52,093 bases of DNA, taken from NCBI GenBank assembly GCA_964626265.1, contig CAZVCG010000012.1, forward strand, positions 1 to 52,093. Direction: 5' to 3'. Position 1 is the first letter of the stretch. Each line of letters opens with the position of its first letter. The position numbers and the translations under genes were made by a program. This DNA comes from an uncultured Rhodospirillaceae bacterium. Its GTDB lineage: Bacteria; Pseudomonadota; Alphaproteobacteria; UBA9219. The notes under the pieces are model-generated. The model saw nothing but the letters and a program-made list of their open reading frames with translations. It made no database searches and had not been told where the DNA came from. Of the stretch, positions 10,536-44,210 are shown one piece after another.

Positions 10536-10568
10536 GCGAGCGTTAACTATAAGATAGGGCGGTAAAGT

Positions 10569-10697
10569 CCCCCTCCCCTTGCGGGAGGGGGTAGGGGAGG
10601 GGTATATAAAGATTTCAATTTACCCCCTCACCTGCAAAAACTAATGGTTTACTGCGTAAACAAAAGTTTTTGCTTCCTCTCCCTCCAGGGGAGAGGG
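10569..10697. repeat. palindromic element family B, copy 1 (CCCCTCCCCTTGCGGGAGGGG type)
   Basis: terminal hairpins ccccctcccc-ttgc-gggaggggg and cctctccc-tccag-gggagaggg; shares accccctcacctgca with the copy near 44172. Confidence 0.8.
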
Positions 10698-11323: not shown

Positions 11324-11430
11324 TGTCATCCCCGCGAAAGCGGGGATCCAGCGCCGCATGTCAATGCGGCAAAAGAGTCATGTGGCTCGCAGACGCTCGC
11401 CACTGGATTCCCGCTTCCGCGGTAATGACA
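11324..11430. repeat. palindromic element family A (TGTC/CGTC-tagged REP doublet, 107 bp)
   Basis: tgtcatccccgcgaaagcggggatcca ... ggattcccgcttccgcggtaatgaca; colinear with 21000-21106. Confidence 0.9.
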
Positions 11431-20211: not shown

Positions 20212-20229
20212 GTGCGAGTCGTCAGAATC

Positions 20230-21027
20230 ATGAGCGAAAAACCAATGTTCCTCACTCTACCGGATAGGAAGCTAGCCTATCAACAAGTCCTTGGAAACAG
20301 GGATATTTGCTCAAAAAACGGCCTATTTTTCCTAGGCGGATACGCCTCAGACATGACGGGCAGCAAGGCTACGTTTCTGGCAGAACGAAGCGCGGCGGCG
20401 GGCAGGGGGCTGACACGGTTCGATTACAGTGGCCACGGCCAGTCCAGCGGGGCTTTTATTGATGGCACGATAGGCGGTTGGTTTCAGGACGCCTTGGCCG
20501 TTTTCGACCAGCTAACCACGGGGCCGCAGGTGCTGGTGGGCTCCAGCATGGGGGGATGGATCGGCCTTTTGCTGGCGCGGGCAAGGCCGGAACGCGTGGC
20601 GGGCTTTGTGGGCATCGCCGCAGCGCCGGATTTCACGGTGGATCTTATCGAACGCTATTTGTCGCCCGAACAACAAGAAGATTTACGACGCGACGGCGTG
20701 ACTTACGACGAAAGTGGCGGGCCTGAGCGGCGTGTGCCGATTACTCAAAAGCTGATCGACGAAGGGCGAAATCACCTTTTGTTGCGCGGACAGTTGGGGG
20801 TGGATTGCCCGATGCGTTTGCTGCAAGGCCTACAGGACACTGAAGTGCCGTGGCAAACCGCGCTCAGAATAACGGAAACGGTCGCGGCGCAAGACGTGCG
20901 CGTCACGCTCATCAAGGACGGCAACCACAGCCTCAGCAGGCCGGAGGATTTAGAGGTGTTGTGGCGTGAGGTGGAAGGATTAGCTGATAGTTACGATGGT
21001 GTCATTCCCGCGAAAGCGGGAATCTAG
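20230..21027 (+). CDS. alpha/beta hydrolase
   Basis: RFDYSGHGQS, GSSMGG nucleophile elbow and DGNHSLSR; last codons come from a REP element. Confidence 0.9.
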   Translation: MSEKPMFLTLPDRKLAYQQVLGNRDICSKNGLFFLGGYASDMTGSKATFLAERSAAAGRGLTRFDYSGHGQSSGAFIDGTIGGWFQDALAVFDQLTTGPQVLVGSSMGGWIGLLLARARPERVAGFVGIAAAPDFTVDLIERYLSPEQQEDLRRDGVTYDESGGPERRVPITQKLIDEGRNHLLLRGQLGVDCPMRLLQGLQDTEVPWQTALRITETVAAQDVRVTLIKDGNHSLSRPEDLEVLWREVEGLADSYDGVIPAKAGI

Positions 21028-21106
21028 CGCCGCATGTCCATGCGGCACATGAGTCTTATGGCTCGCGGACGCTCGCCGCTGGATCCCCGCTTGCGCGGGG
21101 ATGACA
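21000..21106. repeat. palindromic element family A (107 bp)
   Basis: tgtcattcccgcgaaagcgggaatct ... ggatccccgcttgcgcggggatgaca. Confidence 0.9.
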
Positions 21107-26285: not shown

Positions 26286-27278
26286 ATGAAACGCCTTTTC
26301 ACCCCTTCGGAACGCCCGGACACCGACGACACGTTCGTCCTTTCCGCCGTCGTGCCGTGTTTTAACGAAGCCGAAGGTTTGCGCGAGTTGTGGCGGCGGC
26401 TGTCCGCCGCGTGCCGCGAGACGGTGGGGAAATCCTACGAAATCATCCTCGTCAATGACGGCTCGACGGATTCCACGTGGGCCAAGATGAACCTGCTAGC
26501 CGAAGAAGACAGCCATATCATCGCCGTCAATTTGTCGCGCAACCACGGGCATCAACTGGCGCTCAGCGCAGGGCTATCCATCGCGCGCGGCGATCATGTG
26601 TTCGTTATCGATGCCGATTTGCAAGACCCGCCGGAACTGCTCGGCAAAATGCTCGACCTGATGAACCAGGGCGCGGACGTCGTTTACGGCCAGCGTACGC
26701 ACCGCAACGGCGACACGTGGTTCAAGCGCGTGACGGCCAAGGCCTTTTACAAGCTGCTCGGTAAACTGGGCGAGGTTCCCATTCCGTCCGAAGCCGGAGA
26801 TTTCCGCCTGATGAGCCGCCGCGCGGTCGACATTTTGAACAACATGCCGGAGCGCAGCCGCTACATCCGCGGCATGGTGAGCTGGATCGGGCTTCGGCAA
26901 GTCGCGCTGCCGTATGAACGCCAGCCGCGCTTTGCGGGCAAGACGCATTATCCGTTGGGTAAAATGGTGCGGTTCGCCATCGACGCCGTGACGGGCTTTT
27001 CCATCGTGCCGCTACGTATGGCGTCCTATATGGGCGCGGCCATCGGCATCGCTGGTTTGCTCCTTCTGATTTACGTGCTGTTGGCGTGGATAGCGGGCGA
27101 AACCGTGCAAGGCTGGACATCGCTCATGGTCGTCGTACTCGTGATCGGCGGCGTGCAGCTCATCAGCCTCGGCGTGTTCGGCGAATATCTCGGCCGCATG
27201 TATATCGAATCCAAACACCGCCCGCTCTTCATCATCGACAAGATCGTGAACCATGAAAAACCCGCGCCGAGAGTTTAG
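26286..27278 (+). CDS. polyprenol-phosphate glycosyltransferase, GT2 (GtrB/YkoT-like)
   Basis: VVPCFNE, VNDGSTD, LSRNHGHQLAL, DADLQDPPE, GDFRLM and two C-terminal TM helices. Confidence 0.92.
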   Translation: MKRLFTPSERPDTDDTFVLSAVVPCFNEAEGLRELWRRLSAACRETVGKSYEIILVNDGSTDSTWAKMNLLAEEDSHIIAVNLSRNHGHQLALSAGLSIARGDHVFVIDADLQDPPELLGKMLDLMNQGADVVYGQRTHRNGDTWFKRVTAKAFYKLLGKLGEVPIPSEAGDFRLMSRRAVDILNNMPERSRYIRGMVSWIGLRQVALPYERQPRFAGKTHYPLGKMVRFAIDAVTGFSIVPLRMASYMGAAIGIAGLLLLIYVLLAWIAGETVQGWTSLMVVVLVIGGVQLISLGVFGEYLGRMYIESKHRPLFIIDKIVNHEKPAPRV

Positions 27279-28129
27279 GCAGCTGAATAATCCAACGCCA
27301 AATCCAACACGGGCGCGCTGTGGGTGATCCAGCCGGATGAAATTACGTCCACGCCCGTAGCGGCGATGGCGCCGATGTTCGCGGGCGTGACGTTGCCCGA
27401 AGCTTCCGTCGTAAACTTGCCGTTCACCATCTTCACCGCTTGCGTGAGCATCGCCGCATCCATGTTGTCCAAAAGCACCGCGTCGATGGACAGGTTTAAC
27501 GCGTCGCGCAACTGGTCGAGCGTATCGACTTCAAGCTCGATTTTCACCAGATGCCCGGCGGCGGCCCGCGACTTTTCAACCGCCGTGCGAATGTTTCCTG
27601 CTGCGGCGATGTGGTTGGCCTTGATCAAGGTCGCATCGTCCAAGCCCATGCGGTGATTGAACCCCCCGCCAGCGCGTACGGCGTATTTCTCCAGCGCGCG
27701 AAGGCCCGGCGTCGTCTTGCGCGTGCACGCTACGCGCGTATTATGCGGCTTTACGGCGTCCACCAATGACCGCGTCGCCGTGGCGATGCCGCTCAAATGT
27801 CCGAGAAAGTTCAGCGCCACCCGTTCGCCGGTCAAAATCGCGCGCATCGGCCCTTCGACGACGGCCAGGGCTTCGCCCGCTTGCACCGTATCGCTGTCGT
27901 TTTTCTTGGCCGTAAACCGCACGCCGCTATCCAACAATTGAAACGCCAGCCGCGCGCATTCCATGCCTGCGATGACGCCCGCTTTCCTCGCGACAATCTG
28001 CGCGCGGCCCTGCTGCGCCGCTGGAATGATCGCGTCGGTCGTGATGTCGCCCGCGCGGCCAAGATCCTCCGCCAGCGCAAGATGCACCAGCGGCTCAAGC
28101 ATATCGTGGGGAAGAGGGGAGAGGGGCAT
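27275..28129 (-). CDS. nadC: nicotinate-nucleotide pyrophosphorylase (quinolinate phosphoribosyltransferase)
   Basis: [31 protein letters not shown] and LLDNM. Confidence 0.96.
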
Positions 28130-28149: not shown

Positions 28150-28292
28150 TGTCATCCCCGCGAAAGCGGGGATCCAGTGGGAGAGTCCGTAGTCACAAGC
28201 GGATATTTATATGTGCCGTCCGTCCCGATTGCCAGATACACTGGATTTCGGCTGGAGCCTGCCCCGTGCAGCGACACGGGGCCGGAATGACG
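28150..28292. repeat. palindromic element family A forming the nadB 3' end
   Basis: tgtcatccccgcgaaagcggggatcca ... gccggaatgacg. Confidence 0.88.
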
Positions 28293-29807
28293 TAAAAGGT
28301 TGGCGTCTTGGGCCGGAAAATCCGTGCGGCAATGCGCGCCGCGGCTTTCTTCGCGGTGAAGCGCGGCAGTCGCGATCATCAAACCCACAAGAGCCATGCC
28401 CGAATGCGCCGCGAGCGGCGTGAGCGCGTCTATTGCTTGCTCCAAGCCTTCTTTGTCCCTCAACACGCCGACGTGTTTTTCCATGATGGCGCGGATGGTT
28501 CCGGCCGTGTCATCCCCGCGAAAGCGGGGATCCGGTTGCGAGCGTCCGCGAGCAGTTAAAGTAGCTAACGGCGTCTCATAGCTATGGCCGTTCTTTGATT
28601 CATATGGCGCGTTGACACGCGCCGCTGGATTCCCGCTTTCGCGGGAATGACAATTTTCAATCCCCTTTGCCACCTTCAACCCGAACACCACCGCTTCCAG
28701 CAAGGAGTTGCTCGCGAGGCGGTTCGCGCCGTGCAATCCCGTTGCCGCGACTTCGCCGCACGCCCATAGGCCGTTCAAGTTTGTGCGCCCATCGGCATCC
28801 GTCGCCACGCCGCCCATGTGGTAATGCGCCGTGGGCCGCACGGGGATCGGCTGTCGCGTCGGGTCAAGCCCAGCGCCAAGGCACAACCTGTAAATCGTCG
28901 GAAAGCGTTGCGCGAAATCGGGGATCATCCGCGCATCCAAAAACACGCGCCGCCCCTGCTGTAATTGCGCCCAGATTGCGCGCGCCACGATGTCGCGCGG
29001 CGCAAGCTCGTCGTGTTCCGAGCCGTTCATGAACCGCTCGCCGCGATCGTTGATCAATACCGCGCCTTCGCCGCGCAGGGATTCGCTTGCCAGCGGCATC
29101 GGGTCGAGGCCAACGTCGATGCCTGTCGGATGAAACTGCACAAACTCCAGATCGCGCAACGCTGCGCCAGCACGTGCCGCCAGCAAAATACCTTGTCCCC
29201 ATGAGCCATGTGGATTGGTTGTATGTGGCCACAATGCGCCCACGCCGCCCGTCGCCAAAACGATGTTGTCCGTCGCTATATGTTCTGTCTTGCCGTTGCC
29301 CACATACGTCACGCCTGTCACGCTGTTAGCATTGGTGGTGATCGCCGTCGCGTTGGCATCGTCGATCACCGTGATCGAAGGCGTTTTCAAAGCGCGCGCG
29401 GCTAAGGCTTTCGTCACCGCCGCGCCCGTACCGTCGCCATCGGCATGGACGACGCGGCGACGACCGTGGCCGCCTTCCAGACAAACGTCAATCTCGCCAG
29501 CGCGGTTTTTGTCGAACGCGACGCCCCAATCCATCAATTGTTGAATGGCCGCAGGCGCGGCTTGCGTCACCATGCGCACGATGGCGGGGTCGCACAATCC
29601 CGCGCCTGCCGCTATCGTATCCTGCGCATGAAGTTCCGGCGTGTCGTCCGGCCCCATCGCGGCGGCGATGCCGCCTTGAGCCAAAATGCTGCTGCTTTCC
29701 TGCCCGATCGTCTTACGCGTGAGCACGATAACGGGCTGCGGCGCCATCGCGAGCGCAACCGTCAATCCGGCGATACCGGAACCTATGATGACGGGGGGCT
29801 GGCTCAT
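28152..29807 (-). CDS. nadB: L-aspartate oxidase with two REP-derived segments
   Basis: IIGSGIAGL, AQGGIAAA, QFHPT, HYHMGG, GLHGANRLASNSLLE and ESRGAH. Confidence 0.96.
   Translation of the reverse strand: MSQPPVIIGSGIAGLTVALAMAPQPVIVLTRKTIGQESSSILAQGGIAAAMGPDDTPELHAQDTIAAGAGLCDPAIVRMVTQAAPAAIQQLMDWGVAFDKNRAGEIDVCLEGGHGRRRVVHADGDGTGAAVTKALAARALKTPSITVIDDANATAITTNANSVTGVTYVGNGKTEHIATDNIVLATGGVGALWPHTTNPHGSWGQGILLAARAGAALRDLEFVQFHPTGIDVGLDPMPLASESLRGEGAVLINDRGERFMNGSEHDELAPRDIVARAIWAQLQQGRRVFLDARMIPDFAQRFPTIYRLCLGAGLDPTRQPIPVRPTAHYHMGGVATDADGRTNLNGLWACGEVAATGLHGANRLASNSLLEAVVFGLKVAKGIENCHSRESGNPAARVNAPYESKNGHSYETPLATLTARGRSQPDPRFRGDDTAGTIRAIMEKHVGVLRDKEGLEQAIDALTPLAAHSGMALVGLMIATAALHREESRGAHCRTDFPAQDANLLRHSGPVSLHGAGSSRNPVYLAIGTDGTYKYPLVTTDSPTGSPLSRG
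28508..28652. repeat. palindromic element family A inserted in frame in nadB
   Basis: tgtcatccccgcgaaagcggggatcc ... ggattcccgctttcgcgggaatgaca. Confidence 0.92.
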
Positions 29808-30799
29808 TTCACCCCGATCATCCGCTCGACGGATTTCCGCGCGTCGGCGGCGATAGCTTCGGGGATCGTGATTTCATGCGTCATCGTTTCCAGCGACGCG
29901 CGAATCTTTTTCAGCGTGATGAGCTTCATATGCGGGCACATCTGGCAAGGGCGCACGAAATCGATTTCCGGATGCTGCGCGGCGATGTTGTCGCTCATTG
30001 AGCATTCGGTCATCAGCAAAGCCTTGGAAGGACGCTTAGCTTCGATCCAGTCGATCATCTGCGCGGTCGATCCGGCGTAATCGGCCACCTTGATCACGTC
30101 CGGCGGGCATTCCGGATGCGCCAGAACCGTCAGCCCCTTGTGCTGGTCGCGATACGCCTTGATTTCATCCGCCGAAAAACGTTCGTGCACTTCGCAACGC
30201 CCGCGCCACGGAATGATCTTCACGTTCGTCTGCGCAGCGACGTTGAGCGCGAGATATTCGTCGGGGATCATGATGACTTCCGGCACGCCGAGCGACTCCA
30301 CGATCTTCTTCGCGTTGCCGGAGGTGCAGCAAATGTCGGAAACCGCCTTCACGGCGGCGGAGGTGTTCACATACGTCACCACAGGAACTCCCGGATGTTT
30401 TTTCTTGAGCGCGATCACGTCCTCCGGCGTGACGGAATCCGCCAGCGAACATCCGGCCTTCGGGTCAGGCGTCAACACGGTGCGTGACGGGTTGATGAGC
30501 TTCGCCGTCTCGGCCATGAAATGCACGCCCGCGACGACGATCACGTCGGCTTGCGTTTTCGCGGCTTCGCGGGCGAGGGCGAGCGAGTCCCCCATAATGT
30601 CGGCGACGCCGTGAAAGATTTCCGGCGTCATATAATTGTGGGCGAGAATGATCGCGTTGCGCTCTTTCTTCAGGCGCTGAATATCCAGAACGTCGGCGGC
30701 GAACGTCGCCCACTCTTCGGGGGGGACGACGTTCCTCACCTTCGCGTAGATTTCCGCCGTGGCCTCAAGAGCCTTGTTAACGGAACTGAAAGCGTCCAT
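29804..30799 (-). CDS. nadA: quinolinate synthase A
   Basis: LAHNY, GDSL, HFMAETAK, AGCSLA, CEVH, AHPEC and CPHMK. Confidence 0.97.
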   Translation of the reverse strand: MDAFSSVNKALEATAEIYAKVRNVVPPEEWATFAADVLDIQRLKKERNAIILAHNYMTPEIFHGVADIMGDSLALAREAAKTQADVIVVAGVHFMAETAKLINPSRTVLTPDPKAGCSLADSVTPEDVIALKKKHPGVPVVTYVNTSAAVKAVSDICCTSGNAKKIVESLGVPEVIMIPDEYLALNVAAQTNVKIIPWRGRCEVHERFSADEIKAYRDQHKGLTVLAHPECPPDVIKVADYAGSTAQMIDWIEAKRPSKALLMTECSMSDNIAAQHPEIDFVRPCQMCPHMKLITLKKIRASLETMTHEITIPEAIAADARKSVERMIGVK

Positions 30800-30940: not shown

Positions 30941-32023
30941 ATGAACATCAAAACCCCCGAAAACGTCGGAATCGAACTCAGCGCCGTCATCGTGGCGGTT
31001 ACGCGCAACGAGCCTCAGGTTATGTTGTTGCCGTCCCGCGCCTTGCCTTCGGGGCCTTTCAGCACCCATCACCGCACGCTGGAGCAGGGGCTTCGCGCAT
31101 GGGTCGATGCCCACATCGGCCTCAAGCTCGGCTACGTCGAACAGCTTTACACGTTTGCCGACAAGGACCGCACTGCCGACAACATGCGCGCCGTATCCAT
31201 CGGTTATTTGGCTTTGGCGCGCGCGCCTACGGTGAAAAACGGCGATCAGGAAAAAGAAACTCTAAAAATATTTCCTTGGTACGATTTTTTTCCGTGGGAA
31301 GACCGCCGCAAAGGCGTGCCGGCCGTAACGGATCACATCTTAAAAGCTTTGACGCAATGGAAAGCCGCTGCACCGGATGCCGCCACCCGCAAAGCGCGCG
31401 ATAACCGCATCGCCATCAACTTTCCCAAAGACCCCCGCGCTTGGAACGAAGAACTCGTTTTGCAGCGTTACGAACTTCTATGGGAAGCGGGATTGATCGA
31501 GGAGGCGCAAAGGCATTTTTTGAGCGAGAAAAGCGTTGCAGGTAAGCACGGTAAAACTCCCTCCCCCTTGCGGGGAGGGTTGGGGAGGGGGGCAAACGAC
31601 TGGGCAGAGAATATGGCTTTATATCCAAAAAACTCTGCCAAGCGGATGGCCCCCACCCCTAACCCCTCCCGCGAGGGGAGGGGGATTTTCATCCCCGGCC
31701 TGTCCATGCCGCACGATCATCGCCGCATTCTTGCGACGGGCATCGCACGGTTGCGCGCCAAGATCAAATACCGTCCCGTCGTGTTCGAACTGATGGCCGA
31801 ACGCTTCACGCTTCTACAATTGCAGAATACCGTCGAAGCGCTGGCGGGCTTGCGTTTGCACAAGCAAAACTTCCGCCGCCTTGTGCAAGGGCAGGGGCTT
31901 GTCGAGGAAACCAGCGGAACGACAAGCGACACGCGCGGCCGTCCGGCGAAACTCTTCGCCTTCCGCCATGATGTCTTGCGCGAACGCGCCGCCGCAGGGA
32001 CTAAGCTGCCGCGTAGTGGTTAG
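30941..32023 (+). CDS. nadQ: Nudix-like NAD biosynthesis regulator NadQ (COG4111), with in-frame palindromic insertion
   Basis: LGYVEQLYTF, DHRRILATG, KYRPVVFELM and LHKQNFRRLV; divergent from nadABC. Confidence 0.88.
   Translation: MNIKTPENVGIELSAVIVAVTRNEPQVMLLPSRALPSGPFSTHHRTLEQGLRAWVDAHIGLKLGYVEQLYTFADKDRTADNMRAVSIGYLALARAPTVKNGDQEKETLKIFPWYDFFPWEDRRKGVPAVTDHILKALTQWKAAAPDAATRKARDNRIAINFPKDPRAWNEELVLQRYELLWEAGLIEEAQRHFLSEKSVAGKHGKTPSPLRGGLGRGANDWAENMALYPKNSAKRMAPTPNPSREGRGIFIPGLSMPHDHRRILATGIARLRAKIKYRPVVFELMAERFTLLQLQNTVEALAGLRLHKQNFRRLVQGQGLVEETSGTTSDTRGRPAKLFAFRHDVLRERAAAGTKLPRSG
31557..31684. repeat. palindromic element family B inserted in frame in nadQ
   Basis: ctccctcccccttgcggggagggttggggagggg ... 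ccccacccctaacccctcccgcgaggggagggg. Confidence 0.88.
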
Positions 32024-44071: not shown

Positions 44072-44127
44072 TGATCCTTTATAATCCCATGGTCTGCGCA
44101 ATTTCTCCAAGGAAGCGAGGAAAAGTT

Positions 44128-44210
44128 CCGCTCCCCTTGAGGGAGGGGATAGGGTAGGGGTAGATGAAAGAAACCCCCTCACCTGCAGGAAAGCGACACT
44201 TGCAAGAGGG
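44128..44210. repeat. palindromic element family B, partial copy
   Basis: ctccccttgagggaggggatagggtagggg ... accccctcacctgca shared with the 10569 copy. Confidence 0.7.

Follow-up and report, generated by a model that had tools for sequence, protein, structure and literature searches.

A CGTC-1 palindromic repeat dimer probably forms most of the inter-domain linker of an alphaproteobacterial L-aspartate oxidase

Introduction

How does a palindromic repeat come to be read as protein within a core metabolic enzyme, and what does it leave of the sequence that stood there? The question is raised by nadB, the gene for L-aspartate oxidase, in an uncultured Rhodospirillaceae bacterium. We analysed a stretch of 52,093 nucleotides (nt) from this organism (contig CAZVCG010000012.1 of assembly GCA_964626265.1; hereafter the window), in which a first-pass annotation, made from the sequence alone, had noted a palindromic element at 28508-28652, in frame and free of stops within nadB, and had taken it for a mobile hairpin turned into protein. 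The coordinates proved exact. We consider it very probable that here two CGTC-1 repetitive extragenic palindromic (REP) units form a head-out dimer, which became coding in the inter-domain linker of NadB and is likely a neutral passenger there. A repeat is indeed read in frame in a core enzyme, and its origin follows from DNA identity, but the phenomenon and the repeat family were already published between 2000 and 2013; the new points are modest, namely the replacement of a linker, the arithmetic of the frame, an age for the insert and a single NadB site that repeats have occupied more than once.

The element in nadB is a repeat in the only open frame of six

Two inverted REP units, with outer tags (TGTC...GACA) at 28508 and 28652, bound an element of 145 nt, translated on the minus strand as CHSRESGNPAARVNAPYESKNGHSYETPLATLTARGRSQPDPRFRGDD (CHSRESGNP...PDPRFRGDD). 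The insert peptide is preceded by ...RLASNSLLEAVVFGLKVAKGIEN (also given as ...NSLLEAVVFGLKVAKGIEN) and followed by TAGTIRAIMEKHVG, with base 145 opening the Thr434 codon. Stops, 2-4 in each, interrupt five of the six frames but not the one in use. As RNA, the element is predicted to fold at -77.8 kcal/mol, against -45.4 +/- 4.0 kcal/mol for shuffled sequences (z -8.2); pairing extends over the outer 21 bp.

With up to 3 mismatches allowed, the window contains seven occurrences of the 20-nt hairpin core ATTCCCGCGAAAGCGGGAAT where 0.02 are expected, and the arms of the nadB element are 84-91% identical over 46-57 nt to two doublets of 107 nt. Aligned to these other copies, the nadB copy is a canonical 107-nt doublet with 38 extra central bases. 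The first-pass description of a complete doublet stands for the inverted units and the spacer arms, both present, but not for the centre, which the 107-nt doublets lack. These central 38-43 nt matched nothing elsewhere in the window or in the DNA of 204 other loci, and in metagenome contigs of the organism's depth 28553 is followed by CATA and then directly by 28596, the canonical form found elsewhere in the genome.

Assignment to the CGTC-1 family

CGTC-1 REPs are defined by a CGTC tag (with TGTC and CCTC accepted as variants), an 8-bp stem starting with AT, a 4-nt loop and a CCA tail (PMC3733652). A script demanding exactly these features returned seven units in the window and nothing else, which make up three dimers and one singlet. 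All seven carry an unpaired TGTC tag; their stems are ATTCCCGC, ATCCCCGC or ATTACCGC, with one mismatch in one unit and none in the other six, their loops GAAA, GGAA or GCAA, and their tails CCAG (five of seven), CTAG (one) or CCGG (one).

The same work equates CGTC-1 with dRS3 of Neisseria and with Rickettsia palindromic element 6 (RPE-6) of R. conorii, and reports that CGTC repeats predominate in Alphaproteobacteria (PMC3733652). Its supplement places the peptides CHSRESGNP, VIPAKAGI and DSRFRGND inside R. conorii genes, CHSRESGNP in RC1314. The comparison with Rickettsia drawn in the first-pass annotation is hence more literal than was claimed, the family being the same by that published equation and by the identical peptide CHSRESGNP. 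The two cases share a palindromic repeat in frame in a housekeeping enzyme at a place compatible with the fold and differ in host, here an uncultured environmental alphaproteobacterium of hot-spring and activated-sludge metagenomes; the classical RPE-1 elements exceed the nadB element in length and have no sequence relation to it. Rickettsia palindromic elements were reportedly described by Ogata et al. (2000, Science 290:347; 2002, Genome Res 12:808) and by Claverie and Ogata (2003).

The CGTC-1 REPs described by Di Nocera, De Gregorio and Rocco (2013, BMC Genomics 14:522) are alike in tag, stem, loop, tail, inverted dimers and structured spacers, and also in their alphaproteobacterial preference, in units near the 3' ends of genes and in the supply of stop codons by repeat ends. 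Published dimer spacers are structured and 20-100 bp long, DNA is often inserted between the partners, and intragenic dimers encode 20-30 amino acids (aa), clusters 43-82 aa (PMC3733652). The nadB dimer differs in three respects: nadB is absent from the target genes in the supplement, its 48 aa lie at the upper end of the published range, and it replaces a linker rather than merely decorating the protein.

The 5' unit in nadB is identical at 27 of 28 positions to the NTS of Neisseria (query CGTCATTCCCGCGMAVGCGGGAATCYRG, taken from PMC11893778). Two units match the 28-nt NTS at up to 1 mismatch and six of the seven match the degenerate pattern of the Ssn-related motif (SRM), another name for this type of repeat; the pattern has 7 hits in the window against 0.4 in shuffles. 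Hairpins of the NTS type are cleavage targets of SsnA in Neisseria, and Ssn is a single-domain GIY-YIG nuclease (cd10448) whose gene is often flanked by such motifs (Chenal et al. 2025, Nat Commun 16:2388, PMC11893778). The likeness here lies in the motif; a crude scan of the open reading frames (ORFs) of the window for a GIY..YIG pattern gave one unconvincing match and no convincing ssn candidate.

Two other kinds of small palindromic element invite comparison. REPINs with their REP-associated tyrosine transposase (RAYT; Bertels & Rainey 2011, PMC3116915) likewise place two inverted REPs and a spacer in one long hairpin, with singlets that resemble decayed remnants; they differ in having a GTAG tag and a RAYT gene, against the TGTC/CGTC tag here. 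Intragenic miniature inverted-repeat transposable elements such as Coxiella QMITE1 (Wachter et al. 2018; PMC10969869) also produce in-frame fusions or new C-termini from a small non-coding palindrome, but the nadB element has no target-site duplication and no known related insertion sequence, and the sequence families are unrelated. Neither a target-site duplication nor extended terminal pairing was found in the aligned flanks of the three window dimers. The word mobile, used in the first-pass annotation, is accordingly not borne out: CGTC REPs have no associated RAYT or any other transposase (PMC3733652), and neither a target-site duplication nor an empty-site allele was found.

The exact 29-mer GTCATYCCCGCGAAAGCGGGRATCCAGCG is present in at least 119 stretches of GTDB genomes (L006-L124) from sphingomonads, Lysobacteraceae, Burkholderiales and others. 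Judged by its sequence, the repeat in nadB belongs to a widespread and already described family. The same 29-mer also occurs in metagenome-assembled genomes (MAGs) labelled Dehalococcoidia, Omnitrophota, Acidobacteria, Desulfobacteraceae and Phycisphaerae, besides many Proteobacteria, which reflects either a very wide distribution or contamination of bins. To our knowledge, no enzyme that mobilises CGTC/SRM repeats has been described.

The repeat took the place of most of the native linker

As the first-pass annotation had stated, the site is the variable linker ahead of the C-terminal helical domain: the segment from G376 to R439 measures 30-94 aa in 117 homologs, with a median of 38, and 62 aa in this protein. 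Non-element residues make up 14 of the 62, nine belonging to the preceding helix and five standing before the IR motif. The '..PEER..' with which the next helix usually starts is absent, and RFRGDD of the element stands in its place. Since only 14 of the 62 linker residues are native, the element stands where most of the original linker used to be, and the protein grew by about 24 aa net, not by the 48 aa that the element had been said to add. A clean gap of about 48 aa, anticipated for orthologs, was not seen in the 117 homologs; DNA identity to the other copies proves the repeat origin all the same.

The length of the element leads to a second constraint. An element of 145 nt (3n+1) would shift the frame if simply inserted, so that an insertion or deletion (indel) must have accompanied it; a native linker shortened by about 3n+1 nt agrees with both the replacement and the frame. 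The 107-nt copies, read from CHSRESGNP, end in ...SPLSRG*, the single REP frame that contains a stop. Without the 38-nt centre, the frame in use would meet the TGA of the second REP unit, so the centre shifts this unit into the open DPRFRGDD frame.

It is unlikely, in our judgement, that two REP-bearing half elements landed separately and trapped a remnant of native linker as the central 38-42 nt (SKNGHSYETPLATL). Such an origin would agree with a centre that is missing from every canonical copy and matches nothing else, and with the occurrence of REP singlets in the window (28150-28177, for example); with the centre counted as native, the non-element linker would also measure about 27 aa instead of 14, near the family minimum of 30. 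Both arms, however, contain parts of the spacer (57 and 46 nt) that adjoin each other in the 107-nt dimers, and the only singlet seen has no such part. DNA between dimer partners is common, with spacers of 20-100 bp (PMC3733652), and the centre itself shows palindromic features (CATAGCTATG; AACGGC...GCCGTT), in which it differs from linkers in homologs.

The preferred explanation is one dimer with an extended centre, and its course may have been as follows. The dimer would be transcribed and translated along with nadB, its first six codons (CHSRES) lengthening the last helix of the domain that binds flavin adenine dinucleotide (FAD) and its last codons (GDD) opening the first helix of the C-terminal domain, while the roughly 35 residues between them would make up a disordered loop at the surface and serve as the linker in place of the native one. 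The frame would have called for one or more additional indels, most likely the loss of about 70 nt of native linker, and for the 38-nt centre, by which the second REP unit would avoid its one frame with a stop. The insert would most likely be selectively neutral, in a site that tolerates any sequence, and would have been fixed before the split of lineages that now differ by 11-15% in nadB DNA.

NadB looks functional

The nad operon keeps the order nadA-nadB-nadC on the minus strand. NadB has the domains FAD_binding_2 (1.4e-84) and Succ_DH_flav_C in Pfam, and the solved L-aspartate oxidases 2e5v and 1chu match it in the PDB with E about 1e-88. Its residues E111, H226, R271, H328 and R363 align with E121, H244, R290, H351 and R386 of E. 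coli NadB and are invariant in the 117 homologs, in line with the first-pass remark that the catalytic motifs remain; with these included, all 61 columns invariant across the homologs are kept. Both domains, the E/H/R/H/R residues and the nadA/nadC neighbours by which an L-aspartate oxidase is recognised are present.

The AlphaFold2 model has a mean predicted local distance difference test score (pLDDT) of 88.8 and a predicted template modelling score of 0.90, and its top Foldseek match is E. coli NadB (1knp), with template modelling scores of 0.81/0.84. Residues 397-421, within the insert, have a pLDDT below 50, and the ends of the insert join the flanking helices, with helix 366-391 reaching six residues into it and helix 432-445 beginning within its last codons. 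Rickettsia palindromic elements lie in frame in ORFs that stay compatible with fold and function, and the nadB element resembles them in its open frame and, in the model, in the confident fold and in insert ends that join flanking helices. Taken together, catalytic residues, operon and predicted fold suggest that NadB is functional.

That nadB is instead inactivated or decaying, its open frame a remnant and the organism living on salvage of nicotinamide adenine dinucleotide, is very improbable. Two REP-derived segments lie in the gene (the linker and the C-terminal tail with its stop), the neighbouring regulator gene also carries a repeat, and nadB was found in no RNA run, all of which would suit decay. 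Against it stand the use of the sole open frame of six, the kept catalytic and 61 invariant residues with the confident fold, intact nadA and nadC in kept operon order, and the pattern of substitutions given below.

Populations, relatives and the age of the insert

In two hot-spring runs (X1 and X2), the organism is present at about 4x depth, and contigs cross the right junction with 0 differences. An activated-sludge run (X3) holds the same organism or one roughly 99% identical, together with a relative at about 85-89% identity whose contigs run without gaps over both junctions (28330-28548 with 25 differences, 28584-28777 with 29). Because the relative carries both junctions, the insert predates a divergence of 11-15% in nadB DNA. 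Third codon positions account for 44 of the 56 nadB differences listed from the metagenome runs, and synonymous changes outnumber non-synonymous ones by 40 to 16; this excess of synonymous differences shows that nadB stayed under purifying selection, which also speaks against decay. One X3 contig that looked like a strain of about 97% identity was set aside as such, as all its differences lie in the repeated arms and none in unique sequence, and was taken to come from the same organism or one roughly 99% identical, with unitigs possibly mixed in the arms.

These contigs also bear on whether a collapsed or misjoined repeat could have placed the element in nadB during assembly. Logan unitigs do break at the REP arms, where depth in the source metagenomes, summed over organisms, is 20-200x that of the flanks. 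Independent contigs nevertheless connect unique parts of nadB with the element and its equally unique centre (28331-28575 in X1, 28432-28649 in X2 and 28377-28619 in X3), the diverged relative crosses both junctions, and a misjoin would rarely yield an open frame between correctly ordered NadB segments, so we regard an artefact as extremely improbable.

Several observations weigh against the explanation that we prefer. The element of the X3 relative was recovered at both ends and not at the centre, and, within the population of the window itself, nothing but the assembly spans the left junction, which is otherwise crossed by the contig of the relative. No joint that removes the element was found in the reads of six DNA runs, nor was a close ortholog: the best full-length homolog in a protein search is 65% identical, and metagenome contigs gave nothing above 54% identity. 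No RNA run among those scanned contained nadB. Finally, neutrality of the insert is an assumption, and a hairpin of -78 kcal/mol in the operon mRNA could act in regulation. Joints that skip 42-92 nt were considered as candidate empty sites and rejected, as they are other REP copies.

Repeats recur in NadB linkers

At the DNA level, five further nadB loci have such repeats in the same linker. In L001 (protein P0007), it is a 106-nt CGTC-1 dimer that begins at the same codon and in the same frame as in the window; in L003 (P0066), a CGTC-1 dimer with a short spacer in a different frame; and in L002, L004 and L005 (P0069, P0090 and P0097), the composite element type of the window in the frame SFPRKRES...WIPAFAGMT, decaying in L005. 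The left junction lies 22-29 nt past the Gly376 codon in six of six loci, counted from the sequences, and the right junction 6 to 38 nt ahead of the IR codon. Linkers with a dimer keep 14-22 native residues, against at least 30 in repeat-free homologs; about 100 of the 117 homologs have no recognisable repeat in the linker. In a NadB tree built without the linker columns, the dimer carriers are scattered over separate parts, and well-supported branches force at least three changes. P0069, P0090 and P0097, which form one clade, probably share one event.

The three loci of this clade show a 107-nt composite (REP, CCAGCG, small hairpin, ..CATATG.., small hairpin, CGCTGG, REP) at 2636-2742 in L002, about 1436-1548 in L004 and about 1431-1532 in L005. 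From its conservation across distantly related alphaproteobacterial MAGs, the whole dimer, not the REP unit alone, seems to have propagated.

Other palindromic sequences may be present in NadB as well. In the linkers of the nearest relatives (P0002-P0004, P0013 and P0014), a second, G-rich palindrome family is suggested at the peptide level only, where PLRGGLGRG / NLPREGGG of P0003, P0004, P0013 and P0014 resemble a translated repeat of the CCCCTCCCCTTGCGGGAGGGG type. A second NadB loop, in the FAD/capping region (residues about 150-160 of the query, alignment columns about 170-230), has repeat-like inserts in some homologs, namely DPRFHGDD in P0036 and P0085 and G-rich palindrome-like peptides in P0080 and P0094.

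The recurrence may reflect targeting, repeated overwriting of an old insert, or only tolerance combined with trimming. We entertain, as a doubtful but possible idea, that the NadB linker of this alphaproteobacterial clade is no passive loop and has been repeatedly built and overwritten by palindromic repeats. If so, REP/SRM elements would insert or recombine at this linker in a targeted way, much of the 'native' hypervariable linker would be decayed REP DNA, and such repeats would be a regular source of protein linkers.

Recurrence also bears on whether the element was kept for a function, be it an mRNA hairpin that tunes the nadA/nadB/nadC ratio or mRNA stability, a new interaction of the peptide loop, or a target of Ssn nuclease that affects recombination at the nad locus. 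We judge this to be quite unlikely, though the hairpin is very stable, the relative at 11-15% divergence retains the same junctions, CGTC-1 dimers stand in the same linker of at least three NadB lineages, a second unit lies at the nadB/nadC junction, and such hairpins are cut by SsnA in Neisseria (PMC11893778). The insert, by contrast, is predicted to be disordered, spacers show no relation between lineages in sequence, length or frame, and the linker of most homologs does without a recognisable repeat. Retention is equally explained by the lack of a precise route of excision, and functional constraint on intragenic REPs has been argued against (PMC3733652). A neutral passenger remains the preferred explanation.

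With its linker thus interpreted, nadB offers a clean, dated case outside Rickettsia of a REP hairpin pair turned into protein sequence in a core enzyme. Two aspects are rarely spelled out: a repeat can substitute for a native linker and not only decorate a protein, and whether the reading frame is compatible depends on the length of the spacer modulo 3, since a stop stands in one of the six REP frames. Annotators should note that the peptides CHSRESGNP, VIPAKAGI, SFPRKRES, WIPAFAGMT and DSRFRGND inside real proteins derive from REPs, and stop codons and C-terminal tails beside CGTC-1 repeats can be secondary. The recurrently occupied linker of NadB is also a concrete place to test the insertion or recombination specificity of CGTC/SRM repeats.

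Other repeats and genes in the window

The features on which the above sections draw are collected in Table 1.

Table 1. Coordinates of REP units, dimers and nad genes in the window
Feature	Position	Strand	Remarks
Canonical 107-nt CGTC-1 dimer	11324..11430		Intergenic, rpmB / cmk
Canonical 107-nt CGTC-1 dimer	21000..21106		Between convergent genes
nadC, quinolinate phosphoribosyltransferase	27275..28129	minus	Start 22 nt past nadB stop
REP singlet at nadB 3' end	28150..28177	plus	Gives last 8 codons of nadB (TGSPLSRG) and stop
nadB, L-aspartate oxidase	28152..29807	minus	ORF, 551 aa, intact, flanked by nadA and nadC
CGTC-1 REP dimer	28508..28652	minus	145 nt, in frame as NadB residues 386-433
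3' REP unit, inverted	28508..28535	plus	TGTC ATCCCCGC GAAA GCGGGGAT CCGG; minus-strand reading PDPRFRGDD
Sub-terminal spacer arm	28536..28553	minus	GCTCGCGGACGCTCGC; common to 107-nt copies (46 nt, 91%)
Central stretch, about 38-42 nt	28554..28595	minus	nadB copy only; encodes roughly SKNGHSYETPLATL
Sub-terminal spacer arm	28596..28624	minus	Own small hairpin GCGCGTGTCAACGCGC; common to 107-nt copies (56-57 nt, 84-86%)
5' REP unit, coding sense	28625..28652	minus	TGTC ATTCCCGC GAAA GCGGGAAT CCAG; read as CHSRESGNP
nadA, quinolinate synthase	29804..30799	minus	Stop overlaps nadB start; Pfam NadA 6.8e-112
NrtR/NadQ-like regulator	30941..32023		Divergent to nad operon
NGHSYETPLATLTAR			Predicted tryptic peptide of NadB

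The 3' end of nadB has a repeat of its own, the singlet of Table 1. The TGA stop of the gene (28152-28154) is the TCA of the TGTCAT tag of this singlet. Residues 516-551 of NadB have low confidence in the AlphaFold2 model, and this 35-aa tail is predicted to be disordered; the gap of 22 nt to nadC compares with overlap or abutment of the two genes in four homologous loci (L001-L004). We also considered a further, decayed dimer behind the tail and rejected it: in local alignment to the canonical copies, 28181-28300 scores no better than shuffles, and for this reason only the singlet is claimed at the 3' end. The minus strand at 28241-28292 does offer a candidate decayed unit, with CGTC ATTCCGGC, a 28-nt insert containing a CCCGTG/CACGGG hairpin, and GCCGAAAT CCAG; it reads RHSG...SRNP and, with the singlet, would cover 143 nt, like the dimer in the linker.

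A gene end formed by a repeat is also seen at the dimer between convergent genes, within which an alpha/beta-hydrolase gene (20212..21027, plus strand) ends as ...VIPAKAGI*. Its TAG stop derives from the tail variant CTAG that replaces CCAG, with 11 nt between the opposite end of this dimer and the end of the convergent methyltransferase gene. An unrelated G-rich/C-rich palindromic repeat of the CCCCTCCCCTTGCGGGAGGGG type lies at 31557-31684 inside the NadQ/NrtR-like gene and occurs again at 10560-10602 and 44118-44160.

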